The notes beneath the pieces were generated by a model. The model saw nothing but the letters and a program-made list of their open reading frames with translations, was not told the DNA's origin and did not search any database. From contig CAWUSE010000005.1 in assembly GCA_963925805.1 (NCBI GenBank), forward strand, positions 89,281-153,280: a stretch of DNA of 64,000 nucleotides, given 5' to 3'. Below, piece after piece: positions 9,522 through 53,718 of the stretch (position 1 is its first letter; every line of letters starts with the position of its first letter). This DNA is from an uncultured Acidimicrobiales bacterium (lineage in GTDB: Bacteria; Actinomycetota; Acidimicrobiia; Acidimicrobiales; UBA10347). The translations under genes were made by a program, and so were the position numbers.

Positions 9522-9524
9522 GCA

Positions 9525-11998: not shown

Positions 11999-12169
11999 CG
12001 TTTGGTGCTAATGACGTTTGCCGGGAGGTGGTTGTTACCCGGCGTTTGTGTTTTTTTGCATGCTGCTAGCGTGAATAGCGTGAACGATTCACGGCCAGGC
12101 TGGCCCCCCTCTGGGAGGAAGCCCCGGGGATGGACGCCGCTGCCATCGCATAACAAGGCGCCGACACCG

Positions 12170-12439
12170 ATGAGGTCCGCTCTGGACAACCTGGCGTCGA
12201 CCTTGGGTCTTACCAATGTGGACAGCATTAATGCTCTGTTTGTTGATTGGCCGGAAATCGTCGGTGAGCAACTGGCGAAGCACTGTGTTCCGCGTTCACT
12301 TCGTGACCAGGTTTTGACGATTGAGGCCAGCGATCAGCAGTGGGCAACCGAGTTGAAGTGGATGACGTCATTACTAATTGAGCGGTGTTGTGACGCGCTA
12401 GGGCTAGACGCGGTGACCGAAGTACGAATCATTCGCTGA
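12170..12439 (+). CDS. DUF721 protein (DciA / Rv0004-like); the ORF is open from 12002 but ATG 12170 is the more likely start
   Basis: It holds the recF-gyrB position, which DUF721/DciA occupies in actinobacteria. The size and the W-rich C-terminal part fit (DQQWATELKW). Confidence 0.7.
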   Translation: MRSALDNLASTLGLTNVDSINALFVDWPEIVGEQLAKHCVPRSLRDQVLTIEASDQQWATELKWMTSLLIERCCDALGLDAVTEVRIIR

Positions 12440-12644
12440 GAACGGCTATTTTTAGCCAAAATCAGCGGTGTAACTGGTGCGGAATTGCTTGGTTGATTTG
12501 CCAGACACTGTCACAGCTAAGTGGTAGAATTACAACACTAAAATTACTCAGTTTTTGATTGGTTTTAGCTTCGCATTGTGCCAGATTCGGCACCATGCGC
12601 TTCACCCTGCGGAGTGGGGGTCATCGCGGTGAACGCCATGGTGA

Positions 12645-14741
<2,097 letters not shown>

Positions 14742-14852
14742 GGGGCGTACGTCTTTATTCGCGGCGCTTGCAAACTCTGTCGACGGTGCGCCCGTCGACG
14801 GTCCTGGCAAGTCAAGCCCTTAGCCCTGAGCCAACCCCACTGAGAGAGCCTC

Positions 14853-17519
14853 ATGAGTGACACCACCAATAACGACACACCTAATAACGACGATCCCGAA
14901 GAGCCTGGCGATGGTGACGATGGCGCCATTCGCGTCAATGTCGAACCAATCACTATCCAAAGGGAGATGGAGAATTCGTTCCTCGACTATGCCATGTCGG
15001 TCATCGTGTCTCGGGCCCTGCCCGACGTGCGCGATGGTCTAAAGCCGGTACACCGACGCATCATATGGTCGATGTCCGATAGTGGGTTCCGGCCCGATCG
15101 GTCCCACGTAAAATGTGCTCGTGTCGTGGGCGATGTCATGGGTAAGTATCACCCGCACGGGGATAGTGCTATCTATGACTCTTTGGTGCGTATGGGGCAG
15201 ACATTTTCACTGCGACATCCGCTGATTGATCCTCATGGGAACTTTGGATCACCAAATGACCCGCCGGCAGCTATGCGCTACACCGAATGTCGGTTGTCGA
15301 ACCTTGCCATGCGTCTGATCGACGGCATTGATGAGAACACCGTCGACTTCAGTGACAACTTCGATGGAACCGAAGAAGAACCATCGGTGTTACCGGCAAA
15401 ATTCCCGAATCTGTTGGTCAACGGCAGCCAAGGTATTGCTGTTGGAATGGCCACCAGCATCCCGCCGCACAATCTGGGTGAAGTTTGCGATGCCACCCTG
15501 CATCTGATTCAGAATCCCGACGCGACCGTCGAAGACATGATGCAATTCGTTAAGGCACCAGATTTTCCAACCGGTGGTCTGATTCTGGGGGCCCGCGGCA
15601 TTCATGACGCCTACACGACGGGACGCGGATCAATCCGGATGCGAGCCGTCGCTGAAATTGTCGAGAGTAAGACCGGCACGCCGTGGATCGTGGTTACCGA
15701 AATCCCGTACCAAACCAGTGTCGAAGTTATTGAAGAAAAAGCTGCCGCCATGGTGAACAGCGGCCGACTCGAAGGCATTCGTACCATCCGGAACGAATCA
15801 GCCAAGGGCAAGACTCGGCTGGTATTTGAGCTGCGACGCGATGCAGTTCCCAAGGTTGTGCTGAACAACCTATTTAAGTACACGCCACTACAGACCACAT
15901 TCAGCGTGAACATGGTTGCCCTCGACGACGGTGTGCCTCGCACACTCAACCTGCTGCAGGTGTTGCAGGCCTATGTCGCTCACCAGGTCGAGGTCATCAG
16001 TCGTCGCTCACAGTTCCGCTTGGATAAAGCTCGGGCTCGAGCTCACATTCTCGAAGGCCTGCTTAAGGCGATCGGCATGATTGACGACATCATCGCGTTG
16101 ATCCGTAGGTCCGAGAACCGCTCCGCAGCGCGCGATGCTTTGCAGGTCGCTCCATTCGAGTTTTCTGAAGTCCAAGCCACGCACATTCTTGACATGCCAC
16201 TTGGCCGCTTGACCCAACTCGGCCATGCTGATCTTCAGACCGAACTTAACGAGTTGGCGCAGACGATCGCTGATCTCGAAGATATTCTGAGCAATCCGGT
16301 TCGACTTCGCGAAGTGATCTCGTTTGAGCTGACCGAAGTACGCGACGGTTATGCCAATCCGCGTCGAACCGAACTAACCATCGATCCTGGCGAATTCGAT
16401 ATCGAAGATCTGATCGACGATGAAGAACTGATCTTCACTCTGACCGACGGCGGTTACGTTAAGACCACCCCAGCCGACGAGTTTCGCACGCAGAGTCGTG
16501 GTGGACGCGGCGTCAAGGGTGCCCAGTTAAAAGAAGGCGACTTGGTCGAGGTCATGCTGCATACAACAGCACATGCCTACATGTTGTTCTTCACGAACCT
16601 TGGACGCGTGTTCCAGCTTCGGGCGCACGAGATCCCGGTGCAGAGCCGAACCGCTCGTGGAACACCCATCGTGAACCTTTTGCAACTTGGCCCTGAAGAA
16701 ACCGTGATGGCGGTCGTTGACACGCGTGACTACGAGACCATGCGCTACCTGTTCTTCGTAACCCAAGAAGGGGTTGTCAAGAAGACCGCCTTTAGCGCCT
16801 ATGCAAATATTCGCCAGAATGGTCTGCGTGCCATCAAGATGCGCGAAGACGATCAGCTGGTACGGGTTGTGCCGATCAATGGAGAGATCGATGTGTGCTT
16901 GGTTACCAAGAACGGCCGCCTCATGCGTTTCGATCCCAACGAAGTTCGCGAGATGGGCCGTGTCGCATCCGGTGTTCGCGGCGTCAAGCTCAAAGAGGGC
17001 GACAAGGTCGTGTCGTGTTCTGTGGCTAGCGAGGATCAGGACTTGTTGCTGATTTCTAGCGAAGGATTTGGCAAACGAACTCATTTCGATGCCTTTAACT
17101 CGAAACATCGTGGAGGGCAAGGTGTGACCGCTATGAAGATGCGTGATGGCAACGGCGAAGTCGTTCGAGCTCTTGGGGTGCTTCCCGACGACGAGGCCAT
17201 GTTGATAGCGAAGAGCGGCATCATTATTCGCATCGCTATCGGCGACGTGTCGGTGCAAGGGCCACATGCCTCTGGCGTGCGAGTCATGTCGGTTCCTGAT
17301 GATGATCAAGTCGCAGCCGTGACTCTGGTTCGCGAACCTGAAGGCGACGACGAGGCCAGTCCTGGCGACGAGGTTTCTGTCGACGGGATTTCTGATGGCA
17401 CAGTCTCCAACGACACAGGTTCTGCTGTTAATGCTGATGCCGAACCAGGGGCAGTCGCTGTTGACAGTCGTGATTCGGTGACCGAAGATACTGACTCGTC
17501 ATCTGACGAGGACAAGTAG
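14853..17519 (+). CDS. gyrA: DNA gyrase subunit A with an acidic C-terminal tail
   Basis: 888 aa. The catalytic region contains AAMRYTE (active-site Tyr) and the QRDR-like [16 protein letters not shown]-terminal beta-pinwheel repeats are present. Confidence 0.97.
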
Positions 17520-17565
17520 CCACTACATCTGCTTCCCCAATGACAAGTTATGTCTCGGGGAAACA

Positions 17566-18108
17566 ATGTGTAACTCATCTGAATTAGCTACTACGGGGTC
17601 GACTGTCGGGCGTGCCGAACGTGGGCAAGCCACGATTGCACTCGTCGGTATCCTCGCGGTTGCTTGCGTTGCCATGATCGGGTTGTCGATTGTTGGGCAG
17701 GCAATCGTGCATCGCGCGCGGTCTCGCAATGCTGCTGATGCGGTCGCGTTAGCAGCAGCAATCGACCAGACCGATGCTGACGCACTCAGAGACTGGTATT
17801 TCCAACGAAATATTTTGGTCGAAGAGAACGGGGTGCAGACGATCGCGCGGAGTGGGCCGTCACAAGCCGCAGCATGGGCATCAACCCAGCGGTCAATAAC
17901 CAAACCGGCGCCAGTGCTAATCGCCATAGTTTCTCGTGCGGAACAATTAGTTGGCGCAATTTTTATGCCTGTTCAGTGGCAGGCCATGGCGGTGACGCTC
18001 TCTCACGTAGACGCAGCGAACATGCTAATTGTGGCTGGTGAATTGGGCTTGTGCGAGGGTCTCGCTATAGACACGGCGCCCGGTATGACGAGGTTCGAAT
18101 TGTGTTGA
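17566..18108 (+). CDS. hypothetical protein with a TadE-like (Rv3654c-type) N-terminal pseudopilin-like segment
   Basis: The pattern ERGQATIALVGILAVACVAMIGLSIVGQAIVHRARSRNAADAVALAAA resembles the DRGSATV...RHRA..AAD.AALAAA pattern of TadE-like proteins. This is from memory and was not searched. Confidence 0.5.
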   Translation: MCNSSELATTGSTVGRAERGQATIALVGILAVACVAMIGLSIVGQAIVHRARSRNAADAVALAAAIDQTDADALRDWYFQRNILVEENGVQTIARSGPSQAAAWASTQRSITKPAPVLIAIVSRAEQLVGAIFMPVQWQAMAVTLSHVDAANMLIVAGELGLCEGLAIDTAPGMTRFELC

Positions 18109-18151
18109 TTCCGAGGGGTGAGCCCAAAGGAGTGCGCCTCTTGTCGTAGAC

Positions 18152-18823
18152 TTGCGGGCTGTGGCAGACAATGAGCCAACGAAGACCGTTGATGATCCGA
18201 CCTCTAGCGATGGTGAATCCGTCGAAGACGGAGTCCAGTCAGCCAGTTTTTCGTATGACGAGCAGACGCTTGGACGTTCGACCAGTGTGTTTGATGCAGG
18301 AGTGGACTTCATTCCGCCAACGGTGCCGCCTGTGGCCCCTGCCTCTGGGGCGCCTGCTTCTGTGACGCCTGCGCCAACACGTGAACGGCCGATGACTGTT
18401 CGCGAGCGACGGCGCCGTGTCAAACTCCAAGCTCGACGAGTCCGACGGGTGATCCGCCACATCGAGCTGTGGTCGGTGCTCAAGTTCAGCCTGTTGTTCT
18501 ATTTTTGTCTTTGGCTAATCTTTGTGCTCGCTGGCGTGTTGTTGTGGAGTTTCGCTGAGAGCTCAGGAACCCTCCAAAGCATCGAAGATTTGGTTGAGAG
18601 CTTGTTTGCACTTGACGAGGCTGAAAACTTCTGGAGCGGCGGCACGATATTTCGTGCGTATGGCGTCATGACATTGGCCCTTTCGATTGCCGGTGTGACC
18701 TTTAATGTGTTGCTGGCTGCGCTGTACAACCTGATCAGTGACCTGACTGGTGGCATTCGCATCACGGTGATCGAAGAAGAGTCGGCACGCTTCACTCCGC
18801 CAAAGCGGCGCCAACGCCGGTAA
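18152..18823 (+). CDS. DUF3566 membrane protein (Rv0007-like, conserved downstream of gyrA)
   Basis: A Pro/Ala-rich N-terminus is followed by an R-rich segment and two TM helices (WSVLKFSLLFYFCLWLIFVLAGVLLW). Its position after gyrA matches actinobacterial synteny. Confidence 0.8.
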   Translation: MRAVADNEPTKTVDDPTSSDGESVEDGVQSASFSYDEQTLGRSTSVFDAGVDFIPPTVPPVAPASGAPASVTPAPTRERPMTVRERRRRVKLQARRVRRVIRHIELWSVLKFSLLFYFCLWLIFVLAGVLLWSFAESSGTLQSIEDLVESLFALDEAENFWSGGTIFRAYGVMTLALSIAGVTFNVLLAALYNLISDLTGGIRITVIEEESARFTPPKRRQRR

Positions 18824-18929
18824 CGGGTAGTGAAGGGTTTTGTCTCATTCTCCGACAAGAACCTGTCCGAGCTGAGAGCCTAATGCTTGGGGCAGCTGGG
18901 GGTTTAAGGCTTCGCGAGGTCCGTCGTCA

Positions 18930-18982
18930 AAACTAAATAAGGAGCCTGATGCCCCAGATGGGTGCATCACGCTCCTAATTTT
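18930..18982. terminator. bidirectional intrinsic terminator candidate between the DUF3566 gene (+) and tRNA-Ile (-)
   Basis: Long hairpin AGGAGCcTGATGC...GCATCAcGCTCCT at 18940-18976. It is flanked by an A-rich run (AAAACTAAATA) on the left and AATTTT on the right. Confidence 0.5.
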
Positions 18983-18994
18983 CAGCGCTGTTCG

Positions 18995-19068
<74 letters not shown>

Positions 19069-19140
19069 GAACAGTGCGGCGTCATCGTAGCGGGATCAAT
19101 CCGCTCGACCACCCTGTTTTTAGGCGAGTAGCCTTACGAC

Positions 19141-20492: not shown

Positions 20493-21431
20493 ATGTACGA
20501 AGGGACGAGCCACGTGAGCACCGCGGACGAAGCAGAAGTACTGGTAGATAGCGAAGATGACGAGCCGGTCGGCAACACAATGACGCCGGCTGAAATCAAT
20601 GCGCTAATCGAGGAACACGTACCCTTGGTGAAACATATTGTTTTCCAGGTCGCTGTTCATTTCCCTCGCCACGTCGAACGCGAAGAGCTCGCGCGAGCAG
20701 GTGCACTTGGTTTGGTTGAAGCCGCACAGAGGTACAGCCCTGAGCGTGGCATCCCATTTCAACGTTTCGCTGCGCGCCGAGTACGGGGTGCAATGATTGA
20801 CTCTGTTCGTGCTGCTGACTGGGCGCCTCGTTCGGTCCGCCGCCTGTCCCGCCGCTTTGACGCTATGGAACAACAGCTCGCTAGCGAGCTCGGTCGTGCG
20901 CCTCAGACCAAGGAAACAGCGGAAGCACTGGGCATGAAACCCGAGGAGGTCTCCAAACTCCGTTCGCAGCTTTACCGATCAGTTGTTCTTGCCCTAGAGC
21001 ATGATGTTGGTGGCGAAAGTGGAGAAGATCTTAATCTGTTAGACATCCTGCCTGATCGGGCCAACCTCGAGCCAGATGAGCAGCTCGAAGGACGTGAGCT
21101 TTACGCTTACTTGCAGGATGCAATCTCGCTCCTTCCTGAACGGCATCGCCTCGTTATTGTGGGTTACTTTCTGGAAGAGAAGACCTCGGCCGAACTGGCC
21201 CGCTTCTTGGGTGTTACCGAGTCACGAGTTTCTCAGCTTCGGTCTGATGCCGTTGAAATGTTGCGTCAGGGAATCACCTCGCAGTACGAAGATGTAGAAG
21301 CCGATTCAGAGACAGGCCTTCGCGCTGAGCGCCGCAAGAAGTACGCAAACGCAATTGGTGAAGCCAGTGACTGGCGCGACCGCCTCGACGAGGGCGCGGA
21401 ACTGAGCACCGACATCCGCACTGTTCTCTAG
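20493..21431 (+). CDS. FliA/WhiG-family RNA polymerase sigma factor
   Basis: Regions 2-4 are recognisable. The motif RVRGAMIDSVRAADWAPRSVRR is close to the WhiG/FliA pattern R.RGAMIDELR..DW.PRSVR. Region 4.2 HTH: TSAELARFLGVTESRVSQLR. Confidence 0.85.
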   Translation: MYEGTSHVSTADEAEVLVDSEDDEPVGNTMTPAEINALIEEHVPLVKHIVFQVAVHFPRHVEREELARAGALGLVEAAQRYSPERGIPFQRFAARRVRGAMIDSVRAADWAPRSVRRLSRRFDAMEQQLASELGRAPQTKETAEALGMKPEEVSKLRSQLYRSVVLALEHDVGGESGEDLNLLDILPDRANLEPDEQLEGRELYAYLQDAISLLPERHRLVIVGYFLEEKTSAELARFLGVTESRVSQLRSDAVEMLRQGITSQYEDVEADSETGLRAERRKKYANAIGEASDWRDRLDEGAELSTDIRTVL

Positions 21432-21820
21432 CTAGCGGTTTGAATATCTTCAGAACAAGGAATTTCCACGGTTTAACCTAGGAAATTTTGTATCAGCAAT
21501 CCTGAGCGCTGTTTCTTGTCCTCTACGCTTGGCCATTCGAGTGCGTCAAGTATTGATAAGGCTAACTAGTTCTGGCGAACAGGCTGCCAACAGATTCGTT
21601 CAGAGGTCGTGGGTGCAGCGAGGCTGGTTGATCTGGCGAGTGGAGCGTTCTATCACGGGTCCGGGCTTTGGTATCAAGGGCTTTATCTGGGGCGACGAAG
21701 CTGACAACATTAGAGGCTGGCCAAACGGCTGACGTATCGATCCAGGACATCCCGCTAGGCTCTGGCGCAGGCTGTGGGCGGCACCTCAGTGGCACACAAG
21801 CATTAGATGATGGGATCCAC

Positions 21821-22465
21821 ATGCACTGGCGCCAGCGACTCAAGGATGTACATCCTCGACTGGTAGAGGCGGTCCTGGCACGAACAGTCGAGCGTAGTTA
21901 TAGCGCCGATATGGTTTTGTGCCACGAGGGCGATGCCCCTGACGGCATGTATTTATTGGAGCAAGGACGTGTTCTTGTTCAGTCATCGACGGTCGATGGG
22001 GCCGCGGTTGGTTTAAGTGTTGTCGACGAGGGGGATGTCGTAGGCGAACAGGCCTTGTTGGCTCAGACCTCTCGCAGCGCAACTGTAATTGCAGTGCAAG
22101 CGACGATGGTTCGCCTACTTCGACCAACACAGTTTCGCGAACTTCGCCTTGAGCGGCCTGAGATCGACCAATTCCTCGTTTCGGTCCTCGACGGTCGACT
22201 GCGCGAGATGTCGAGACGGTTAACCGAGGCGGCTCATTCAACCGCCGAGGAGCGGGTTTGTCGACGGGTATTGGCACTCGGTTCGGCCTTCAACGGAACG
22301 ATTCAACTTAGCCAATCGACGCTGGCTTCATTGGCAGGGACAACACGGCCTACCGTGAATCGCGTGCTTCAAGATCTTGTTCGAGAAGAATCAATTCGGT
22401 TGCGTCGTTCTCGCATTGAGGTCATTAATCCCGAAGCGCTTGCGGCAAGAATTCCTGATTTGTAA
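21821..22465 (+). CDS. Crp/Fnr family transcriptional regulator (ORF open from 21668; ATG 21821 preferred)
   Basis: An N-terminal cNMP-binding beta-barrel (GDAPDGMYLLEQGRVLV...GEQALL) is paired with a C-terminal HTH (QSTLASLAGTTRPTVNRVLQDL). Confidence 0.8.
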   Translation: MHWRQRLKDVHPRLVEAVLARTVERSYSADMVLCHEGDAPDGMYLLEQGRVLVQSSTVDGAAVGLSVVDEGDVVGEQALLAQTSRSATVIAVQATMVRLLRPTQFRELRLERPEIDQFLVSVLDGRLREMSRRLTEAAHSTAEERVCRRVLALGSAFNGTIQLSQSTLASLAGTTRPTVNRVLQDLVREESIRLRRSRIEVINPEALAARIPDL

Positions 22466-36299: not shown

Positions 36300-37907
36300 C
36301 TACACCCGCCGACCGAATGAGTCGACGGCCTCGTCGGCCATGAGTCGTTCCAGTGTTGCTTCGGGCTTGTCCTCGGAGACCTGGCGGACTCGGAATGCAG
36401 ATTCGAAGAGCACCCAGATTGAGCCATCGGATCGTTCGACAATCTCGACACCGCGGAGTCCGCGAAGGAGAGGTACAGATTCGTCATCGGTCAGTCGGGC
36501 AACCGAGTAGCTGGTAGGCGATAGTTCGACCGGGGCGTTGAATTCGTTTTCGAGACGATGCTTGGCGACCTCGAACTGCAGTGGGCCAACCGCTGCGAAG
36601 ATTGGTGCTTGGTCGCCGACGCCAGGGATTCGCAGAACCTGCACGACACCTTCTTCGTCGAGCTGGGCGACACCAGAACGGAACTGCTTGAACTTACCGG
36701 TGTCCTTGGCTCGGGCGATCATGAAGTGGGTCGGAGCGAACGCCGGCATTGGGCGCCACTGGACTGGCTCGTCTACGTAGACCGCGTCGCCAGGACGAAA
36801 GCCATTGGCATTGATCAGCCCGATCACGTCGCCCGGAAAGGCTTCGTCGAGGGTTTCTCGATCGGACCCTTGAACCGAGTGCACATACTTGGTTGTGACC
36901 GAACGCTTGCTTGGGCCGTGGGTGATCGTCATGCCACGTTCGAATCGACCTGATGCGACTCGCAAGAAAGCGATGCGATCTCGATGGTTCTTATCGGTGT
37001 TGGCTTGCACCTTGAACACATGTCCGCTGAAGGGTGAGTCGATGGGGCGAGGATCATCGTTGATGTCGGTTCGGGCTGGCGGTGATGGCACCAGGTCGAC
37101 AACAGCGTCGAGCAGGTGTCCGACGCCAAAGTTGGTAAGAGCGGAACCAAAGAAGACAGGTGATAGCTCGCCAGCTTCGAACTTTTCACGATTGAAGACT
37201 CGGTCCACCCCATCGAGCAACTCGACGTCTTCAAGCGCTGCGGCAGCGAGCTCAGAATTCATCAATACAGGACTGTCGATCGGGCTTACTTTCTCGGGAG
37301 CCATGGTCGATCCGTGGGCGACGCGAGTGAACTGTACATACTCGTTACGTAGCCGATCGATGACGCCATCGAATGTTGTCGATTCGCCGACAGGCCACGT
37401 GATTGGCGCTGGTTCCAGGATCAGGTCTCGTTCGATTTCGTCGAGCAGGTCCCATGGGTCGCGGCCGGGGCGATCCCATTTATTGATGAACGTCACGATG
37501 GGCACGTCGCGCTCGCGGCATACCTCGAACAGTCGGCGGGTCTGTGGCTCGATGCCTTTGGCTGCGTCGAGAACCATGATGGCTGCATCGGTTGCAGCCA
37601 ATACGCGGAACGTGTCTTCGCTGAAGTCCTTGTGGCCGGGGGTGTCGAGAAGGTTCAGCAAGCAATCGCGATACGGGAAACGCATGACTGTTGAGCTGAT
37701 CGAGATACCGCGCTGTTGTTCGATCTCTTGCCAGTCGCTGGCGGCTGCCTTACCGCCACGGCGAGCGGCGACCGAACCAGCACCAGCGGTGAGAACGCCC
37801 GAGTACAACAGAAACTTCTCGGTCAGTGTGGTCTTGCCAGCATCGGGGTGCGAGATGATGGCGAAGGTCCGCCGTCGGGCGGTTTCTTCGATGATCTGAT
37901 TGCTCAT
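36300..37907 (-). CDS. prfC: peptide chain release factor 3 (start at ATG 37907; the ORF-track extension to 38054 overlaps selO)
   Basis: MSNQIIEETARRRTFAIISHPDAGKTTLTEK (G1), DTPGHKDF (G3), and NKWDR (G4). Confidence 0.93.
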   Translation of the reverse strand: MSNQIIEETARRRTFAIISHPDAGKTTLTEKFLLYSGVLTAGAGSVAARRGGKAAASDWQEIEQQRGISISSTVMRFPYRDCLLNLLDTPGHKDFSEDTFRVLAATDAAIMVLDAAKGIEPQTRRLFEVCRERDVPIVTFINKWDRPGRDPWDLLDEIERDLILEPAPITWPVGESTTFDGVIDRLRNEYVQFTRVAHGSTMAPEKVSPIDSPVLMNSELAAAALEDVELLDGVDRVFNREKFEAGELSPVFFGSALTNFGVGHLLDAVVDLVPSPPARTDINDDPRPIDSPFSGHVFKVQANTDKNHRDRIAFLRVASGRFERGMTITHGPSKRSVTTKYVHSVQGSDRETLDEAFPGDVIGLINANGFRPGDAVYVDEPVQWRPMPAFAPTHFMIARAKDTGKFKQFRSGVAQLDEEGVVQVLRIPGVGDQAPIFAAVGPLQFEVAKHRLENEFNAPVELSPTSYSVARLTDDESVPLLRGLRGVEIVERSDGSIWVLFESAFRVRQVSEDKPEATLERLMADEAVDSFGRRV

Positions 37908-37938
37908 GAGCGTGCGTTTCTTGGGGTCGAATGCCCAG

Positions 37939-39573
37939 CTAGGAACTGCAGGACAACATGGAACAGCCTGCCCGTTCTCGCGCCCATTCCGGGCGCTTGG
38001 TGAAGAACTCGACTTCGTGTTCTGGTTGTTCATCGTAGGGATAACGCAGCACATCGAGCAGTTGATTTACTGCTGAGAAGTCGCCCTGGTCGACCTTGTC
38101 GATGGCCAACTGTGCCATCCAGTTCCGAAGCACGTACTTGGGGTTCACGGCATCCATGGCCAGCTTGCGTTCTTCGGTGGAGCGGCCGTCAACGCCACAC
38201 CGGTCAGCCCATGCACGAAGCCACTCACTCATTTCTTCGACCACACGCGCGGTCGGCTGGGCATACCAGGCGTCGGCAACTGGTTGCACCAGGTCGTAGT
38301 CGCTGAGATCTTCGGCGTTCTCGACGTCGACCTGGGCCAGGTTTCGGTGAAAGATAGTCATGTCAGTTTCGACGATCTGCAGCACCCGGCCCAGCTCGCC
38401 GAACAGAGCATTGTCGTCGTCTCCAGCAAAGCCGATAAAACCGAGGCGCTCTGCCATCATCGCGTTCCAGCCGTTGCCGAACTCGTCGGCATAGGAGTCG
38501 AGTGCCTCTTGTAATGGTTCGACGTTGTCGCCATAAAGCGGAGCGATTGCATTCGCAAGTTGCACGAGATTCCAATGTGCCATCGAAGGCTGATTTCCAT
38601 AGCGGTAACGACGGGCTTCGGCATCTGTGGTGTTGGGCGTCCAGTCAGGGTCGAACCCTTCAAGCCAGCCGTATGGTCCGTAATCAATGGTCAGGCCCAG
38701 AATCGACATGTTGTCGGTGTTCATCACCCCGTGAACAAAACCGATGCGCATCCATTCGACGATCATCTCTGCGGTGGTGCGAACGATTTCAGCAAACCAG
38801 TCAGTCACAACGTCGAGGGGCTGGTCGTCATCGCCTTCGACCAGGTCGGGGAAATCGGTACGTATCGTCCAACTGACGAGTTGGGCTAACTGATCCAACT
38901 CATCTCGTGATGCAAACAGCTCGAAGTTTCCGAAGCGGACAAAGGACGGGCTGACTCGACAGACGACGGCGCCGAGCTCGTCGGCAGGGTTACCGTCGTA
39001 GAACATGTCGCGCATGACCTGGTCGCCGGTCAGTGTGAGGCTCAGCGCTCGGGTTGTTGGGACGCCTAGATGGAACATGGCTTCGCTGCACAAGAATTCG
39101 CGCACAGAGGACCGCATCACGGCGTATCCGTCGCCGCGACGTGAATACGGTGTTGGTCCCGAACCTTTGAGTTGCAGTGTTTGGTGGCCGTTGTCGGTGG
39201 TCAGGACCTCGCCAAGGGCAATAGCTCGCCCATCGCCGAGCTGGCCGGCCCAGTTGCCGAACTGATGCCCGCCGTAACACATCGCATAGGGATCCATATC
39301 CGGGGTGATCAGATTGCCGGTCACCAGATGAGCGAACGCGGGGGTCTCTGCTTGCTCGTCGTCGATACCTAGCATTTCAGCCACCTCGGTCGAGTACACA
39401 ACGAGCTGGGGTGTGGTCGCACGTGTGGGCATGACGCGACTGAAACATGCGCCTGTTACATGGCGGCGGACATTGTCAATCTGAGTGTCGGCAGGAAGAT
39501 CACGGGTGAATCGATTGGTGAATACGAGACCAAATAGGTTGTCAGCAGTGTTGTCCACAGTTTCTCTGTCCAC
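37939..39573 (-). CDS. selO: protein adenylyl/UMPyl-transferase SelO/YdiU
   Basis: UPF0061/SelO signatures: YGGHQFGNWAGQLGDGRA and the pseudokinase-fold motifs HGVMNTDNMSILGLTIDYGP. The C-terminus ends in Cys-Ser-Ser. Confidence 0.9.
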   Translation of the reverse strand: MDRETVDNTADNLFGLVFTNRFTRDLPADTQIDNVRRHVTGACFSRVMPTRATTPQLVVYSTEVAEMLGIDDEQAETPAFAHLVTGNLITPDMDPYAMCYGGHQFGNWAGQLGDGRAIALGEVLTTDNGHQTLQLKGSGPTPYSRRGDGYAVMRSSVREFLCSEAMFHLGVPTTRALSLTLTGDQVMRDMFYDGNPADELGAVVCRVSPSFVRFGNFELFASRDELDQLAQLVSWTIRTDFPDLVEGDDDQPLDVVTDWFAEIVRTTAEMIVEWMRIGFVHGVMNTDNMSILGLTIDYGPYGWLEGFDPDWTPNTTDAEARRYRYGNQPSMAHWNLVQLANAIAPLYGDNVEPLQEALDSYADEFGNGWNAMMAERLGFIGFAGDDDNALFGELGRVLQIVETDMTIFHRNLAQVDVENAEDLSDYDLVQPVADAWYAQPTARVVEEMSEWLRAWADRCGVDGRSTEERKLAMDAVNPKYVLRNWMAQLAIDKVDQGDFSAVNQLLDVLRYPYDEQPEHEVEFFTKRPEWARERAGCSMLSCSS

Positions 39574-42683: not shown

Positions 42684-44300
42684 TTATTTGCCGAGGAGTT
42701 CGGTGGCGAGGGCTCGTAGTTCGGGTTTGCGAACTTTGTTCGATGCCGTTAGCGGAAGATCATCGACGATAAACACATGGCGAGGAACCTTGTAGTTGGC
42801 CATGCACTCGCGGCACCACGCGATGAGTTCGTCAGGATCGGGGGCTCCTTGGGGGCTCGGCACGATGAACGCCGTGCCGACTTCACCCATACGATCGTCA
42901 GGCACACCGATTACCGCAGCCATACCCACTAACGGGTGCTCGATCAGCATGCGTTCGATTTCGGCGGGGTAGGCGTTGAAGCCGCCCATTATGAACATGT
43001 CTTTCATCCGGTCGGTGATGTCGATGTACCCCTGCTCGTCCATCACCGCAATATCACCGGTGTGTAGCCATCCATCGGCATCGATCGCTTCGGCTGTCTG
43101 TTCGGGTGCGTCCAGATAACCGGGGGTTACTTGGAAGCCGCGAACCCACAGTTCGCCTTCGACTCCTGGGGCGACGTCAACTCCCGATGGGTCGACAATA
43201 CGAAGCTCCACACCTGCCGCAGCACAGCCTGAGGTTGACGCAATGAGTTCTGGCGGGTCGCCTGGCCGGGTATAGGTAGCCAGGCCCGAGGTTTCGGTCA
43301 TGCCATAGGCCGTCACGATGGTTTCGAAGCCCAGGCGATCTCGCATTTCAATAATCATCTCGACTGGGATTGAGGCGGCGCCGGTCACACATGACCGCAG
43401 CGACGACACGTCGAATCGGGTTAGGTCCGGATGGTTAAGTAAGCCCTGGAACAATGCCGGTGGACCGGGGAACACAGCTACTTTTTCGCGCTCAATCGTA
43501 GCTAGTACGTCGCCGGCTTCATAGATCGCTACCGGCAGATTCACCGCGCCAAACATCAGGCACACGATCACACCAGAGTTGTAGCCGAAGGCGTGGAAAT
43601 ATGGATTCACCAGCAGATATGGGTCTCCTGGTTGCACCCCAAGTGCTTCGCCATAGGGGTAGAACACCCGGATGATGGCTCCACCCACTACCTGGACACC
43701 TTTGGGATGGCCAGTGGTGCCTGACGTGAACATGATCGCACCGACGTCGTCAGATTGGAACGCGTCGGTGCGGCGTTCAACTTCGATCTGATATTCAGCT
43801 GCGTTGGGACCATCGCCGAGCGTCAGGAAGTCATCAAAGTTAGTGGTTCCCAACGCTCCGCCGTTGCTCAAGTCGACCGTGACGTTCAGCTGTGGAACAT
43901 CTTGATTGGACAGCGAGTCGCTGTAGCTAGTGTCGAGGAAACCGTCGACCACAAACAGCATCTTCACCGAGGCTGCATTCAGCACATAGGCGGCCTCGTT
44001 TCCCTTAAACCGTGTGTTGATTGGCACCAGCACTGCGCCAGCTCGTGACACGGCAAGCCCAGCGACGACCCACTGCCAACAGTTTGGCGCCCATACGGCA
44101 ATCGTGTCGCCGGCCTGGATTCCTGATGCCACGAACGCCCGAGCGGCCTGGTCAATGCGGTCGCCGAGTTGTTGGTAGGTGAGGGTGACGGCGCCATCAC
44201 GAATGGCGTCGCGATCTGCGAAGTGAGTGGTTGACGCTCGAATTAGTTTTGGGATCGAAGCATTGTCTGGATCGAACCCCGGAATATCACTTTTGCCCAT
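42684..44300 (-). CDS. fatty-acid--CoA ligase (FadD-type); start at ATG 44300, not 44900
   Basis: MGKSDIPGFD... N-terminus, AMP-binding motif IMFTSGTTGHPKGV, GWLHTGD, and C-terminal NKVRK. The 200-codon upstream extension overlaps the convergent hydrolase gene and looks non-protein-like. Confidence 0.85.
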   Translation of the reverse strand: MGKSDIPGFDPDNASIPKLIRASTTHFADRDAIRDGAVTLTYQQLGDRIDQAARAFVASGIQAGDTIAVWAPNCWQWVVAGLAVSRAGAVLVPINTRFKGNEAAYVLNAASVKMLFVVDGFLDTSYSDSLSNQDVPQLNVTVDLSNGGALGTTNFDDFLTLGDGPNAAEYQIEVERRTDAFQSDDVGAIMFTSGTTGHPKGVQVVGGAIIRVFYPYGEALGVQPGDPYLLVNPYFHAFGYNSGVIVCLMFGAVNLPVAIYEAGDVLATIEREKVAVFPGPPALFQGLLNHPDLTRFDVSSLRSCVTGAASIPVEMIIEMRDRLGFETIVTAYGMTETSGLATYTRPGDPPELIASTSGCAAAGVELRIVDPSGVDVAPGVEGELWVRGFQVTPGYLDAPEQTAEAIDADGWLHTGDIAVMDEQGYIDITDRMKDMFIMGGFNAYPAEIERMLIEHPLVGMAAVIGVPDDRMGEVGTAFIVPSPQGAPDPDELIAWCRECMANYKVPRHVFIVDDLPLTASNKVRKPELRALATELLGK

Positions 44301-44366
44301 GCGGACGACACTAGAACGCCGGGCTTGGCCACCGCTAGAAGACCTGGGCACTACTAAGGTCGGTAC

Positions 44367-45155
44367 ATGGCAACAGTGACGGTGAACAACACACCCATCC
44401 GCTATGAAGACAGTGGCGGAGATGGGCCAGTGATCTTGTTCAGCCATGGGTTCTTGATGGACCACACTATGTTCGATGCCCAGGTCGCAGCCCTGGCAAG
44501 TGACTACCGATGTATTCGTTGGGACGAGCGAGGTTTTGGTGATACGCCATCTACTGGTGAGTTCAGTTACTGGGACTCGGCTGATGATGCGGTCGCCGTG
44601 CTCGACGCTTGTGGCGTTGACAAGGCAGTATTTGTTGGAATGAGTCAGGGTGGGTTCCTCTCTATCCGGGCAACGCTGACTCATCCTGGTCGGGTTCGAG
44701 CCTTGGTGTTGATTGATTCGTGTGCCGACGTCGACGATGCCGAAACAATCGAGGGTTATCACGGCATGCTGGCCGGTTTCACCGGCGGTGATCCAGCCAC
44801 GCAGCAAGCTGTAGCCGAAGGTGTTTCGAGACTGATCCTGGGCGATGAGACCCTGGCAGCCGAATGGATACCTCGGTGGCTCGCCAACCTTAAAAAACAT
44901 GATTTAAACGTGGCGGGTACAGCCTTGTTATCACGCGACGATGTGCAACCCCGCGCCGCTGAGATTACCTGCCCAGTGCTTGTGATTCATGGTGGTGACG
45001 ATCAGGCGATATCGGTCGATCGAGCCCACCTGTTTGCTGATGCCGTTGCCGACAGCCGCGGTGTAGTTGTCGTAGATGGTGCTGCCCATGCGCCGAACAT
45101 GAGCCATCCCGACATCGTGAACGACGCCCTCGCCGCTTTCTTGCAGACGGTCTGA
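44367..45155 (+). CDS. alpha/beta hydrolase
   Basis: HGFLMD oxyanion region, GMSQGG nucleophile elbow, and a C-terminal His (AAHAPN). Confidence 0.8.
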   Translation: MATVTVNNTPIRYEDSGGDGPVILFSHGFLMDHTMFDAQVAALASDYRCIRWDERGFGDTPSTGEFSYWDSADDAVAVLDACGVDKAVFVGMSQGGFLSIRATLTHPGRVRALVLIDSCADVDDAETIEGYHGMLAGFTGGDPATQQAVAEGVSRLILGDETLAAEWIPRWLANLKKHDLNVAGTALLSRDDVQPRAAEITCPVLVIHGGDDQAISVDRAHLFADAVADSRGVVVVDGAAHAPNMSHPDIVNDALAAFLQTV

Positions 45156-49279: not shown

Positions 49280-49386
49280 AAGGCTGAGGTTACTTCTAGA
49301 GCGGGGGTAAATTTGGTGTGGTTCGCGTGTGCGAAATTGTCCCGCGTGTACGCATTAGCTGGGTCGATGTAAGGAGATAGTGGCAG

Positions 49387-49953
49387 ATGCTCGGTTTGAT
49401 CCTAAATGTGGTGGAAGAAGTAATAGTTGATTTGTTCGACGAAGACGCGTGGGATGATGTCATCGAGAACGCAGGTGTTTCAGGCGCATACACGGCGGTC
49501 GGATATTACGACGACGCGGATGTATGGGCGATTATTGGGGCTGTAGGGGTACTGCTCGGTCTAGATGGGTCAGAGACGTTGCGAGTTGCCGGAAGGCATA
49601 TGTTGCCAAGGCTTGCAACGCGTATACCCAAGACCGTGGAGCGCTTCACAACAGCCAGTGATTTCCTTACCTCGATAAACAGCATCATTCACCCTGAAGT
49701 GGAACTGTTGTACCCGAATTCGGTGCCACCTGTTTTTGGCTTTGAGGAAGATGAGGGTTGGATTCTGGTTCGTTATCGGTCTCATCGAGGTTTTTCTTAC
49801 CTGGCCGAAGGCTTCATCTTGGGATGCGCAGATCTTTTTGGGGAGGAAGTCGAGTTGCACGTTGTTGCCGGTTCTGTGGCGACCGACGCTCAATTCCGTG
49901 TCCAATTTTCAACTCCTCGGGCTCAGGAGTTACCGAAGGGCGGGACGGGGTGA
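49387..49953 (+). CDS. H-NOX (haem NO/O2-binding, HNOB) sensor protein
   Basis: 188 aa. Proximal-His motif SIIHPEV (His102), YP (Pro110) and Y-x-S-x-R (RYRSHR, residues 130-134) sit at H-NOX positions. A good AAGGAGA RBS lies 9 nt upstream. Confidence 0.85.
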   Translation: MLGLILNVVEEVIVDLFDEDAWDDVIENAGVSGAYTAVGYYDDADVWAIIGAVGVLLGLDGSETLRVAGRHMLPRLATRIPKTVERFTTASDFLTSINSIIHPEVELLYPNSVPPVFGFEEDEGWILVRYRSHRGFSYLAEGFILGCADLFGEEVELHVVAGSVATDAQFRVQFSTPRAQELPKGGTG

Positions 49954-52898
49954 GTGAGAGACCTTTGGAAAGAGACGTGACCAGCGAAGAACAGATCGCA
50001 CGACTCAAGCGGAGGGCCCACCGTGAGAAGACTGCGCGGCTCGAGGCAGAGAAAATTGCTAACACGAAAATAGTTGAACTAGCCGATGTCAACCGGAACT
50101 TAGGAAAGCGAGTTGCAAGCCAAGCAGCGGAACTCAGCTTGAAACGAGCAGAGGCGTTAGCGAAACTAGATGAGGTCAATCATCAGATAATTTGGGAGAT
50201 TGGCGATGAGTTGGCCGCAGGGACCAACTCAGACGTCGAGGTAGTACTTCTTTCCGTGCTCGAAGCGCTTGGTCGTGCTGTCGGAGCAAGGGCGACGGCC
50301 ATCTGGGAGCTATCGCAAGCCAATCTGACTGCACGGAGCATCGCTCGATGGTTTGACGGAGAAGAAAGAGTGGAGAACGCCGAGTCTCTGCCCACTGTCG
50401 ATGTGGCGACCATTTTGAATACGTTTGGTGACGGTTTTGTTCCGGGCCTGACCGCCGAATTACCAATTGAACAAATCTCTGACTTTGATTTAACGCAGGC
50501 CCCTGGCACGATGATCCTTGCTGGTGTCATCGAACAGACGGGCCCCTTGGTACAGATCCTGACCATCGATTACTTGAGTTCTGAGATTGAGTCAAACTCG
50601 TCAGATACAAACCTGTTGCGTGGGGTGATGATCCTTCTCAGGCAGTACTACAACCGGCTGAAACTCCAAAAAGAGCTAAGTGAAACATCTCAAGAGCAAC
50701 AATTTGCTCATGACTGTTTGATAAGGAACGGGGCGGCTTTGATTGAAAGCACCCCTGCAAATCGTGAAGAGACTTACAATTCTACATTACGAGAAGTCGG
50801 TCTGTTGCTCGATGTCTCAGCCGTTGTTGATTGGCAAATCGACTACGAGAAAGAGTGTTACCTGCGTCGCCGCTTTTGGCAACATCCTGACGATAAGGGG
50901 GGGGAAGTTCCAACTGAAATAAATTTCGGTTCGCGTTTTATGGACAGTATGCGTAGTTCAGAAACGGCTCAGACGTTTCATTCATCGGAACCGACGTTCA
51001 AGATTCCTAACCAGCTTGGCGTAGCGAGAGCTGCAGCTGGAACGAGACCTTCAGCGCTCTTGAGTGTGAGGGGTCTCGTCGCTGGGCCGTGGAAGGCCAG
51101 CGAAGTCTCTTTTGTGGAAAAAATTAGTGCAACCATTCTGTCGGTTGAGAATTGCTGGGCAGCTGAAGAGATGGCCGCAGTAGCGCTTCAGTCCTCTCCG
51201 GTTTGCACGTCGGTTTATAAGAAGAAAGACAGGCTTAAACCTTTCTCTCCTCTTAACCTCGACTTCGTCGAAGGGAATGCAGCATTTCACGATCTTTTTG
51301 GGATCACCAGTGAATACCTTCTCGGTACGGAAGCTGACGCCTATCGTTACAACAGTATCGATGATGTCCCCCAAGAGCTTCGATCGTCCTATGAATGGAT
51401 GTTTGACGAAGTTGGCGTGAATAGCATGGACGAAGGGTTCGCTAATGATGCAGGGACAGCTGTAATCACTATGGTTATGAAGGCCTTAGACGGAAGGCCG
51501 ATGTTGCTTGAGTGCCACAATGTTGCGGTGACGCCGTTAAGCCGCGATCCCTTCCTTCTCGTTCATTTGGAAGATATTACAGAACGTCGTCAAGATGAGC
51601 GATTCAAAGAGTTTCTTGTAAATCACGATCAACTTACTGGTCTGCTGAACCGCCGAGGCTTCATCAAGGCAGCCGAAGAGGGGCAAATAGCGTCAGCCAA
51701 TAATTCGGTGGCGCTTATTGATTTAGACAGGTTCAAAAACGTCAATGATTCACTTGGACACGACTTTGGAGACGAATTTCTTAAAGTGGTGGCTGAACGG
51801 CTCGCCGAGAATCTTGATGTTGGAAATATCGTCGCAAGGCTGGGCGGCGACGAATTTGCAGTTTTCCTTAGAGGCCCAATCGAAGAAGCTGAGGCAGGTA
51901 GAGCTGTCCAGAAGTTGATCGACAAGGTTGGCGAGATTGCGACGATTGGAAGCCATCGGGTTTATCCCGCGATGAGTGTCGGGATCTCGTTTGGCCAGAC
52001 CGACACGGATGTCGCCACAGCACTGACGCAAGCAGACGCAGCAATGTACAAAGCGAAACGAGCGGGCGGAAGACGCTTCGAATTGTTTGACAGTGGACTG
52101 AAGGCAGAGATCGATTCTCGAAGGAAGCTTGAGACCGAACTCCGCGATGCACTCATTGCTGATCAACTCGAGGTCTATTACCAACCGGAGGTGTCGTTAA
52201 AAACTGGCAAGATTCTTGGGGCAGAAGCACTTGTTCGTTGGCAACATCCAACACGAGGGTTCCTTGCAGCCGGCCAGTTTATAGAACTTGCAGAGGAGAC
52301 CGGGTTGGCAACCGAAATCAGTCGTCTAGTTCTGCGAGAAGCCTGCGCACAGGCAGCAACTTGGCCTCGGAAGCTACGAAAACGTATAGTGCGAGTCAAC
52401 TTGACGGCGGACCAGGTTTGCGAAGATGTCGGGCTTGAGCAAGAAGTAGTCGAGGTTCTTCAGGGCGTTGCTCTTGAGGCTGAAAATCTTTGTCTGGAGA
52501 TCACCGAGTCTGCTCTGATTAAGAATCCTGAAAGGGCAATTGACACTCTCGCTCGGCTACGAGACCTTGGCGTGAGTATTGCCCTAGATGACTTTGGAAC
52601 GGGGTACAGCTCGCTGTCTTACCTCAAACGTTTCGAAGTCGACTCATTAAAGATTGATAGGTCATTCGTGAGCGATTTGAGCACTGACCCAGAAAGCGCC
52701 CATTTCATAAGGGTAATCTTAGGATTAGCTGAGGGATTGAACCTGACGGTCGTTGCTGAGGGGATTGAGATTGATCAGGAGGCGAGTATTCTGAAGGGTC
52801 TTGGGTGTGAACGAGCCCAAGGATTCTATTACTACAGGCCAATGCCAGCTGCGGAACTCCGTGGACTCCTTGAAGCCGAGGACAACGAAGTCTCCTAA
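49950..52898 (+). CDS. GGDEF-EAL diguanylate cyclase/phosphodiesterase with a 557-aa N-terminal coiled-coil/sensor region (GTG 49950 start overlapping the H-NOX stop)
   Basis: The GGDEF domain has RLGGDEFAVF and DRFKNVNDSLGHDFGDEFL. EAL motifs are EALVRW, EITES, DDFGTGYSSLSYL, KIDRSF, VAEGIE and QGFYY. The ORF-track start at 49758 overlaps the H-NOX gene. Confidence 0.9.
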   Translation: MSERPLERDVTSEEQIARLKRRAHREKTARLEAEKIANTKIVELADVNRNLGKRVASQAAELSLKRAEALAKLDEVNHQIIWEIGDELAAGTNSDVEVVLLSVLEALGRAVGARATAIWELSQANLTARSIARWFDGEERVENAESLPTVDVATILNTFGDGFVPGLTAELPIEQISDFDLTQAPGTMILAGVIEQTGPLVQILTIDYLSSEIESNSSDTNLLRGVMILLRQYYNRLKLQKELSETSQEQQFAHDCLIRNGAALIESTPANREETYNSTLREVGLLLDVSAVVDWQIDYEKECYLRRRFWQHPDDKGGEVPTEINFGSRFMDSMRSSETAQTFHSSEPTFKIPNQLGVARAAAGTRPSALLSVRGLVAGPWKASEVSFVEKISATILSVENCWAAEEMAAVALQSSPVCTSVYKKKDRLKPFSPLNLDFVEGNAAFHDLFGITSEYLLGTEADAYRYNSIDDVPQELRSSYEWMFDEVGVNSMDEGFANDAGTAVITMVMKALDGRPMLLECHNVAVTPLSRDPFLLVHLEDITERRQDERFKEFLVNHDQLTGLLNRRGFIKAAEEGQIASANNSVALIDLDRFKNVNDSLGHDFGDEFLKVVAERLAENLDVGNIVARLGGDEFAVFLRGPIEEAEAGRAVQKLIDKVGEIATIGSHRVYPAMSVGISFGQTDTDVATALTQADAAMYKAKRAGGRRFELFDSGLKAEIDSRRKLETELRDALIADQLEVYYQPEVSLKTGKILGAEALVRWQHPTRGFLAAGQFIELAEETGLATEISRLVLREACAQAATWPRKLRKRIVRVNLTADQVCEDVGLEQEVVEVLQGVALEAENLCLEITESALIKNPERAIDTLARLRDLGVSIALDDFGTGYSSLSYLKRFEVDSLKIDRSFVSDLSTDPESAHFIRVILGLAEGLNLTVVAEGIEIDQEASILKGLGCERAQGFYYYRPMPAAELRGLLEAEDNEVS

Positions 52899-53325
52899 CC
52901 ATCTGGTGATCCGGAATGGGTTTATGGACTTAGGACGCGAAAGGGTCGACCAGCAGATAGTCACTGTTATGCGCATCGACGAGTCCGGCGGATCTATTCG
53001 CTGATCTGCTAGTGCCTAACGTGCAGGGCTTTCCAGCGAGGCCATGTTTCTTCGTTTTTGGCATGACGTCTAAGGGCTAATTCTGGTCTTGGTCGCTAGA
53101 GAGCCGGAGGTTACGAAACCGAATCTTTCCCGTGCGCATGGAGCGAAGGGGCTATCTTCGATCTGGCCCTCGACTTGTACCACGGTGGCCAATCATTTTG
53201 CCCACCTAACTCGATCACAGCTCGGATCTGCGGGCCGCGTAAGCACTGGAATCGTAGGCAAGACTTTATAAACGTTTGGACCAATCAACTTGTCACATAC
53301 CGCGTTGAGGTCCCTGCGGTTGCAG

Positions 53326-53354
53326 CAAAAAACCGGCCTAATCGGCCGGTTTTC
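53326..53354 (-). terminator. intrinsic terminator downstream of tRNA-Gly
   Basis: 8-bp stem AACCGGCC/GGCCGGTT with a 5-nt loop. On the minus strand it is followed by TTTTTT, immediately 3' of the tRNA. Confidence 0.65.
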
Positions 53355-53359
53355 AACAG

Positions 53360-53430
53360 AGCGGGTGAGGGTAATCGAAACCCCGTATTCAGCTTGGGAA
53401 GCTGATGTTCTACCATTGAACTACACCCGC
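53360..53430 (-). tRNA. tRNA-Gly (anticodon CCC)
   Basis: I folded a 71-nt cloverleaf by hand. Acceptor GCGGGTG/CACCCGC, anticodon loop TTCCCAA, T-loop TTCGATT. No encoded CCA. Confidence 0.88.
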
Positions 53431-53718
53431 TGGTGGCAGTGATCTTACGTGCAGATCAGCACTTCGGCCACTCGGGTAGCGGGATCAGTAGGTGAGGGTC
53501 TGGACTGGAACTATGAAACTCACATCAAACTGTTCGATGGCCACCGGTTCCTCGTTGTTGCCGAAGCATTCGACACCCTGCAGGTTTACTTAACCGATGC
53601 CGATAGTGGTCTTCCGTAGACCCGGTGTGGCCTACAGGACTCCAAGTCGTTGTAATTGCAGTGGTTCTCATCGCGGTTCTTCAGCCTGGCAAGCTGAATG
53701 CGGGGTTTGGGTCACTCT

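Follow-up and report, generated by a model that had tools for sequence, protein, structure and literature searches.

The window, a stretch of 64,000 nt from contig CAWUSE010000005.1 of an uncultured Acidimicrobiales bacterium, contains two adjacent genes on the plus strand. The first codes for a predicted H-NOX protein, a haem-based sensor. The second codes for an enzyme with GGDEF and EAL domains, which is predicted to act on cyclic di-GMP (c-di-GMP) and is referred to below as the partner. The pair itself, as described in an earlier note (a 188-aa H-NOX open reading frame (ORF) followed by a 982-aa GGDEF-EAL ORF), was confirmed by ORF calls and Pfam. That note had interpreted the pair as a switch from nitric oxide (NO) to c-di-GMP. 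Systems of this type, termed H-NOX/HaCE, are already known, and the pair in the window differs from them by its phylum, by the long sensor array of the partner, and by the loss of a zinc site from H-NOX. The following features are the basis of the analysis:

49280..49386, plus strand: upstream intergenic stretch, presumed promoter region, with the Shine-Dalgarno sequence AAGGAG at 49373-49378
49387..49953, plus strand: H-NOX gene, 188 aa, ATG start (ORF call, Pfam PF07700)
49950..52898, plus strand: gene for the c-di-GMP enzyme, 982 aa from the GTG at 49950; the other candidate start is the GTG at 49977

Gene arrangement and the H-NOX protein

As read from the sequence, AAGGAG is positioned 8 nt ahead of the H-NOX ATG. 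The gene upstream codes for an alpha/beta hydrolase and is on the opposite strand. The ORF of the partner is open from 49758 to 52898, in a frame that differs from that of H-NOX. The TGA of the H-NOX gene shares bases with the GTG of the partner (GTGA at 49950-49953), so that the genes overlap by 4 nt, as the earlier note had claimed. The 188-aa and 982-aa pair was called independently, with the same 4-nt overlap, on four metagenome contigs. On these, H-NOX is identical, while the partner is identical on one contig and differs by 2-3 residues on the other three. The overlap is also common to the orthologous locus from a metagenome-assembled genome (MAG) of Actinomycetota (L005) and to a third lineage (L089/L090). 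Overlapping frames of hnox and its partner have also been reported for Caulobacter (PMC12329717). A second in-frame GTG, at 49977, falls precisely where the L005 orthologue has its ATG. The partner could start at 49950 (4-nt overlap) or at 49977 (23-nt gap), and the two genes are tightly linked under either start. Scans for sigma-70 consensus sequences and terminators around the pair gave nothing above chance. From this arrangement, the H-NOX gene is predicted to be co-transcribed with the gene for the 982-aa enzyme, and the two are probably translationally coupled.

Within the metagenome collection, the exact H-NOX sequence turns up in 78 blocks, TARA ocean samples among them. Metagenome copies of the pair are near-clonal (0-3 differences in 2.9 kb), and the ratio of nonsynonymous to synonymous changes is uninformative. 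A variant with 95% identity (L002) has 13 nucleotide changes, the quality of which is doubtful.

The H-NOX protein gives a full-length match to the Pfam domain HNOB (PF07700; E=3.8e-30, 105 bits with a cut-off of 25.5; residues 3-158, model positions 2-162 of 163). The nearest PDB entries are H-NOX structures from Shewanella woodyi (6ocv, the best single-sequence match with E=2.8e-17) and Shewanella oneidensis (2kii, 4u9b). A profile of 19 homologues matches the Shewanella H-NOX structures at E=1e-44 (S. oneidensis) to 6e-36, and the H-NOX from Thermoanaerobacter (Tt H-NOX) at E=8.5e-18. The family alignment of these 19 sequences shows no variation at His102, Pro103, Pro115, Tyr130, Ser132 or Arg134. 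Among 83 members of the clade, His102 is invariant, and Pro115 and Tyr130/Ser132/Arg134 are retained with only two exceptions (His130 in L047, Lys134 in L053). His102 and Tyr130/Ser132/Arg134 are in register with the haem ligands of the Shewanella proteins. In the profile alignment to Tt H-NOX, for which we used the sequence that we take to be that of PDB 1U55, His102 corresponds to His102, Pro114-Pro115 to Pro114-Pro115, and Tyr130/Ser132/Arg134 to Tyr131/Ser133/Arg135. The proximal His and the Tyr-x-Ser-x-Arg motif had thus been picked correctly from the sequence. This is not the case for the conserved proline, which had been placed at Pro110 in "YP". That residue is a separate and less conserved position, and the family-invariant equivalent of Tt Pro115 is Pro115 in "VPP".

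In the same profile alignment, the distal triad of Tt H-NOX (Trp9/Asn74/Tyr140) is represented by Val9/Met72/Leu139, which results in an apolar distal pocket. The lack of a Tyr at the position of Tt Tyr140 had previously been read from a simple offset, and proper alignment bears it out. Position 139 is Leu or Phe across the clade. An apolar distal pocket is the signature of those facultative-anaerobe H-NOX proteins that bind NO and not O2 (PMC12329717). We predict that the protein in the window is a stand-alone H-NOX with a complete set of haem-binding residues, of the type that binds NO without stable O2 binding.

A second site of H-NOX proteins is altered in the window. The H-NOX of S. oneidensis binds zinc via Cys139, His161, Cys164 and Cys172 (PMC7108781). 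A three-Cys motif is described as typical of H-NOX groups 2-4 (PMC8738867), and the zinc site is a haem-independent redox sensor in Vibrio cholerae and Caulobacter (PMC7108781, PMC12329717). The window H-NOX belongs to the same sequence neighbourhood as these zinc-containing redox proteins (S. oneidensis, V. cholerae and Caulobacter), and the Cys triad is present in 77 of the 83 clade members. In the window protein, however, the Cys positions are occupied by Ser137, Gly162 and Phe170, with Val159 at the position of the fourth ligand. A further difference from the zinc-containing proteins lies in the partner, a c-di-GMP enzyme in place of a kinase. L005 and L001, which are its closest relatives, share all three Cys replacements, and the H-NOX of the third lineage (L089) also lacks the triad when aligned by eye. 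These three Cys-less H-NOX lineages are exactly the three that are paired with a long partner (see below). Judged from the alignments, the zinc site has been lost from the window H-NOX. The protein should therefore sense via its haem alone and not via cysteine oxidation, which makes it a clean test case for haem-only signalling, free of the zinc/cysteine site that makes results on other H-NOX proteins harder to interpret.

The distribution of H-NOX loci was scanned in one genome per species. The scan returned 278 H-NOX relatives, and the best 80 loci were analysed. Of these 80, 36 are from MAGs or genomes of Actinomycetota, with Mycobacteriales, Acidimicrobiales, Ilumatobacter, Thermoleophilaceae and Frankiaceae among them. 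The partner is kinase-type at 18 of the 36 loci, GGDEF-EAL at nine, and GGDEF-only at one. The best match among GTDB representatives, with 51% identity, is from the Actinomycetota MAG mentioned above (L005). A 188-aa member of the 90%-identity cluster of the window H-NOX has been auto-annotated by NCBI as "heme NO-binding domain-containing protein". A review from 2022 lists H-NOX homologues from Acidimicrobiaceae, Nocardioidaceae, Micrococcaceae and Mycobacteriaceae as uncharacterised and states that no H-NOX of any Gram-positive species has been characterised (PMC8738867). The earlier assumption that H-NOX is rare in Actinobacteria is refuted by this review and by the 36 loci, but its companion, that these proteins are uncharacterised in the phylum, stands. 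No later characterisation of a Gram-positive H-NOX was found in the literature searched. In several Proteobacteria, H-NOX/c-di-GMP switches determine whether cells grow as a biofilm or free-living, and no study of such a switch is known for any Gram-positive phylum. As the window is from an abundant, uncultured ocean actinobacterium, its pair is a natural first actinobacterial pair to express.

The partner enzyme

The following domains were assigned to the partner, in addition to an N-terminal helix that is treated in the next section:

50172..50744, plus strand: GAF-like domain A with connecting helix, residues ~75-265 (hhalign 89.9%, E=1.7e-6; AlphaFold, Foldseek)
50763..51194, plus strand: GAF-like domain B with connecting helix, residues ~272-415 (hhalign 91.6%, E=8.1e-7; AlphaFold, Foldseek)
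51204..51584, plus strand: PAS domain, residues ~419-545 (weak PAS_4 match in the window, Pfam matches in orthologues, AlphaFold pattern)
51621..52073, plus strand: GGDEF diguanylate cyclase domain, residues 558-708 (Pfam E=5.9e-37; RLGGDEF intact, DVGN at the RxxD position)
52137..52841, plus strand: EAL phosphodiesterase domain, residues 730-964 (Pfam E=6.5e-70; motif table)

For the last 440 residues, full-length alignments were obtained to PA0575 (5m3c, E=7e-96), MorA (4rnh) and DosP, each across its GGDEF-EAL module. All cyclase motifs are present (DxLTGL, DLDRFKxxND, RLGGDEF and KAKxxGxR), as are all phosphodiesterase motifs (EALVRW, VNL, EITES, DDFGTGYSS, KID, EGIE and QG). Alignments and the motif table thus agree with what had been read from the sequence, namely an intact GGDEF motif, a complete EAL set and the absence of an RxxD inhibitory site (I-site), the position of which reads DVGN (residue ~623). 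Based on its motifs, the partner is predicted to be a soluble enzyme in which both catalytic domains have intact active sites.

The missing I-site was rejected as a distinguishing feature. RxxD is also missing from 28 of the 39 H-NOX-linked GGDEF proteins of the clade, so that its absence is typical and not distinctive. The L005 orthologue retains an RxxD I-site (RPGD, residue ~632) five residues before GGDEF, and product inhibition of the cyclase may differ between the L005 and window lineages.

The N-terminal half of the partner is much harder to assign. Residues 1-557 have no sequence match in Pfam or PDB; a GAF domain is not reported by Pfam even at E<=1, and a plain hidden Markov model (HMM) of partner GAF domains fails to detect one in the window protein. 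Iterative search among relatives showed a domain of ~165 aa to be present twice, at residues ~75-250 and ~250-440. Long relatives hold 3-5 copies of this domain, some of which are called GAF by Pfam, and distant relatives of the region are GAF(n)-PAS-GGDEF-EAL proteins. The hhalign comparison listed above used as reference the Pfam-verified GAF domains of ordinary H-NOX partners, with ~160 columns aligned.

The structure prediction is consistent with this assignment. An AlphaFold model of residues 75-557, computed from a 15-row alignment, has a mean confidence (pLDDT) of 79.5. It contains a pair of alpha/beta modules and one PAS-like module, with helices 33-48 residues long between them. GAF-B has pLDDT values of mostly 85-97, while residues ~157-186 in the GAF-A region are of low confidence. 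A single-sequence model of residues 1-557 has a pLDDT of 42 and is usable for the N-terminal helix alone. For residues 75-557, the best Foldseek matches (E from 2e-16 to 1e-8) are the PAS-GAF-PHY array of bacteriophytochrome (E=2e-16), the tandem GAF of CyaB2, and GAF-A/B of PDE2A, PDE5 and PDE6. These arrays likewise have long signalling helices between their domains, but have no detectable sequence similarity to the partner. The PAS_4 match in the window is below threshold (E=0.024, 15.3 bits with 23.1 required). At the same position, however, orthologues are above the Pfam cut-offs (PAS_8 at 8.3e-6 in L005, PAS_9 at 3.4e-7 in P0076), and the model has a PAS-type strand/helix topology at residues ~419-545. 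The layout predicted for the partner is thus helix-GAF-GAF-PAS-GGDEF-EAL, with the GAF domains recognised at the level of the fold.

Typical partners of the clade have the layout helix-GAF-GGDEF-EAL (~620-730 aa) or helix-GAF-kinase. The window partner shares with them the helix, a GAF domain and its position directly after hnox, but has a second GAF and a PAS domain inserted. It had been described as unusually large, which is correct (982 aa compared to ~620-730 aa for other GGDEF-EAL partners) and is explained by the extra sensor array. Only three lineages were seen to have this long form, represented by the window, by L005/L001 and by P0076. An exhaustive HMMER search with the N-terminal region of the partner, which covered 1.84 billion representative proteins, returned 19 proteins at E<=1e-3, P0076 being the sole full-length one. 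The extra GAF and PAS domains would probably bring further inputs to the enzyme. In the GAF regions of the window partner, neither a cyclic-nucleotide-binding nor a bilin-binding signature was identified.

A signature helix on proteins encoded beside H-NOX

49989..50084, plus strand: N-terminal "H-NOX-partner signature helix", residues ~14-45, IARLKRRAHREKTARLEAEKIA... (motif HMM E=2.2e-13)

Partner residues ~12-90 match the extreme N-terminus of nearly every protein encoded downstream of H-NOX in the 80 loci, and the single-sequence AlphaFold model predicts a helix across this same range. The conserved core comprises ~35 residues (IARLxRRxxRERxARxEAExIAExxLRxLY). The helix is independent of the output, being found on kinases, GGDEF-EAL proteins, GGDEF-only proteins and short proteins of ~310 aa. 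A motif HMM was built from 41 sequences and run on all 9,733 ORFs with a length of 50 aa or more in the 897 kb that make up the loci and the window. All matches at E<1e-3 are in H-NOX-adjacent ORFs, 5-100 nt past the H-NOX stop, and they cover essentially all of the ~80 loci, about 40 of which had been left out of HMM building. The sole match beyond H-NOX-adjacent ORFs has E=0.07.

Relatives of the long partner allow the helix to be separated from the enzyme family. The third long-partner lineage (P0076) has the helix, and its gene directly follows an HNOB gene with a 4-nt overlap. Three multi-GAF paralogues are devoid of the helix (P0078, P0081 and P0084), and neither the motif nor an H-NOX-like ORF was found in any of their three loci. 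Thus, the helix tracks adjacency to H-NOX, not the enzyme family. On the basis of this co-occurrence, the signature helix is likely a docking element for H-NOX.

A more far-reaching proposal is that the motif RLxRRxxRERxARxEAExIAExxLRxLY is a portable docking adaptor for H-NOX, which acts as specificity determinant on the partner side and connects the one small haem sensor to outputs of whatever kind, be it a histidine kinase, GGDEF-EAL, GGDEF without EAL, a short DHp-only protein or the long GAF-GAF-PAS enzyme, and that in the Cys-less lineage the redox input has moved from the zinc site to the GAF/PAS domains. We consider the odds for and against this proposal to be even. A motif search in a large database returned only contig-end fragments of 47-70 aa and is uninformative with respect to H-NOX-helix fusions and the range of outputs. 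We found no description of the helix in the searchable H-NOX literature, which leaves aside subscription journals (e.g. those on S. oneidensis HnoK interfaces). If the helix is the docking site, recognition of partners by H-NOX becomes directly testable and partners can be found by sequence alone. The signature helix is the finding of widest reach, well beyond the locus in the window.

Some further partners were noted in the loci. At four loci from Actinomycetota and Ilumatobacter (L011, L031, L037 and L067), the partner has only ~300-320 aa, and the helix leads directly into a HisKA-like H-box (...FLANLSHEV...) without a GAF domain. In these short proteins, H-NOX may dock right beside the DHp helix. 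In a Frankiaceae MAG (L065), the protein downstream of H-NOX has 1,313 aa (ORF 4279-8220 of that locus). The signature helix is matched just before its called start, and it gave no match to GGDEF, EAL or kinase probes. An H-NOX with a helix-bearing 584-aa partner is also encoded on a contig binned as archaeal (L070, PXUB01000013.1, "Thermoplasmatales archaeon SW_10_69_26"). This H-NOX may be truly archaeal, or the contig may be bacterial and mis-binned.

Proposed mode of action and genomic setting

Two characterised systems are closest to the pair in the window. In S. woodyi, as in the window, a stand-alone H-NOX (Swoo_2751) adjoins a GGDEF-EAL protein of bifunctional type (HaCE, Swoo_2750). 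Both H-NOX proteins have the same proximal His, YxSxR motif and conserved Pro, and neither has a distal Tyr. NO-bound H-NOX lowers c-di-GMP in this species (PMC8738867). The window H-NOX is, however, only ~30% identical to that of S. woodyi, its host is an uncultured marine actinobacterium, and the partner is much longer, with helix-GAF-GAF-PAS ahead of GGDEF (the domain layout of Swoo_2750 being outside this comparison). In Legionella pneumophila, Hnox1 (Lpg1056) likewise adjoins a GGDEF-EAL protein (Lpg1057). The EAL domain of that protein is reportedly probably inactive, whereas all EAL catalytic motifs are intact in the window. NO-bound H-NOX inhibits the cyclase in Legionella (PMC8738867).

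In the window, the partner gene is directly beside hnox in the same orientation, the pairing is kept in L005 and in L089/L090, and the catalytic motifs are present. By analogy to these systems, we infer that the activity of the partner is controlled by the ligation state of H-NOX via direct binding, as for HaCE. Our interpretation is that the pair represents a two-gene chromosomal signalling module of HaCE type, in which an NO-type H-NOX steers a c-di-GMP enzyme. We assign a probability of about 0.72 to it. The core of the switch proposed in the earlier note, an H-NOX haem sensor coupled to a GGDEF-EAL enzyme in an actinobacterial genome, is supported by the domains, the haem residues, the apolar pocket, the catalytic motifs, the conserved pairing and the actinobacterial synteny, while its premise of rarity is not borne out.

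The module might function as follows. H-NOX would dock non-covalently on the N-terminal helix of the partner and the adjacent GAF-A. Binding of NO to the ferrous haem would break the bond between iron and His102 and change the conformation of H-NOX. This change could run, in a dimer, through the long helices that link GAF-A, GAF-B, PAS and GGDEF, and would shift the balance between synthesis and hydrolysis of c-di-GMP. By analogy to S. woodyi and Legionella, NO would most likely lower cyclase and/or raise phosphodiesterase output, so that c-di-GMP falls and cells change from attached to free-living.

Several points weigh against this interpretation. Oxic seawater, the habitat of the host, has very low steady-state levels of NO. 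No genes for NO production or consumption, no c-di-GMP effectors and no riboswitches were found in the 64-kb window, an Rfam scan of which returned two tRNAs only and no c-di-GMP riboswitch. Binding of haem, selectivity for NO, formation of the complex and the direction in which it regulates are all predictions, and the docking role of the helix is read from co-occurrence only. In addition, sampling of the clade relied on two peptide patterns from this H-NOX subfamily, and the rule that links helix and H-NOX may not reach all groups. The logic of the H-NOX/diguanylate cyclase pair from Paracoccus is inverted (PMC8738867), so that the sign of the response cannot be safely transferred to the pair in the window.

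Three alternatives were considered. It is unlikely, in our view, that the partner acts in vivo solely as a phosphodiesterase, with GGDEF being a GTP-sensing regulatory domain and H-NOX gating only degradation. Many GGDEF-EAL proteins act, on balance, as phosphodiesterases even when their motifs are intact, and the best NCBIfam similarities of the partner are to such enzymes (DibA, PdeR-like, DosP), all below the equivalog cut-offs. However, the cyclase residues are complete, from the DxLT start, the Mg-binding Asp and the guanine-reading Asn and Asp to RLGGDEF and KxxxR, and HaCE from S. woodyi is truly bifunctional (PMC8738867).

That H-NOX reports not NO but redox state or O2, via oxidation of its haem iron from Fe(II) to Fe(III), is improbable. 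The pair would then be a c-di-GMP switch for oxidative stress or oxygen tension, which suits an aerobic marine host without NO-metabolism genes near the pair. In Vibrio and Shewanella, ferric H-NOX is no weaker an inhibitor of partner kinases than NO-bound H-NOX (PMC12329717, PMC7108781). Yet the three-Cys zinc site, which is the dedicated redox element of the clade, is specifically lost from the window H-NOX, its distal pocket offers no hydrogen-bond donor for O2, and the nearest solved relatives are NO sensors.

Finally, adjacency might reflect shared transcription only, with an H-NOX that never touches the enzyme and a motif that is a generic dimerising coiled coil (many coiled coils have the abundance of Arg, Glu and Ala that is seen in it); this is very improbable, since the motif HMM singled out H-NOX-adjacent ORFs although other kinases and sensors are encoded in the loci, about 40 positive loci are independent of HMM building, the helix-less paralogues lack H-NOX, and those H-NOX proteins that have been characterised do bind directly to their neighbours (PMC8738867).

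The genomic setting places the HaCE-type module on the chromosome. Positions 1-19100 of the window represent the replication-origin region, with parB, parA, rsmG, jag, yidC, dnaA, dnaN, recF, gyrB, gyrA, a DUF3566 gene and tRNA-Ile. A gap of ~1.2 kb between yidC and dnaA (6948-8126) probably contains rnpA/rpmH and oriC. The gene order from parB to tRNA-Ile is that of the classic actinobacterial origin region. Thus, the pair is chromosomal and located ~40 kb from dnaA. The 90%-identity clusters of two flanking proteins include proteins of 233 aa and 401 aa from MAGs designated Acidimicrobiales bacterium. The GC content of the pair is 53% compared to 55-58% in the flanks, a small dip. Horizontal transfer of the pair was considered and is unsupported, given the origin-proximal position and a neighbourhood devoid of mobile-element genes.

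Downstream of the GGDEF-EAL gene, ~820 bp (52899-53718) lack any ORF of at least 80 aa. The minus strand there codes for a tRNA-Gly(CCC) at 53359-53430, and the tRNA is the only Rfam family in this region. Genes for a sigma factor of the sigma-70 family (312 aa) and for a CRP/FNR-type regulator (with cyclic-nucleotide-binding and HTH_Crp_2 domains) are neighbours at 20493-22462, about 27 kb upstream of the pair; no link of these two genes to the H-NOX pair was established. Some of the listed ORFs overlap by hundreds of bases. This applies to an ORF that is acyl-CoA-synthetase-like by sequence (42684-44900, minus strand) and an alpha/beta-hydrolase-like one (44367-45155, plus strand), and an overlap is also seen for the ORFs of RF3 and SelO (36300-38054 and 37939-39573, both on the minus strand). 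The true starts of the longer overlapping ORFs probably lie further downstream.

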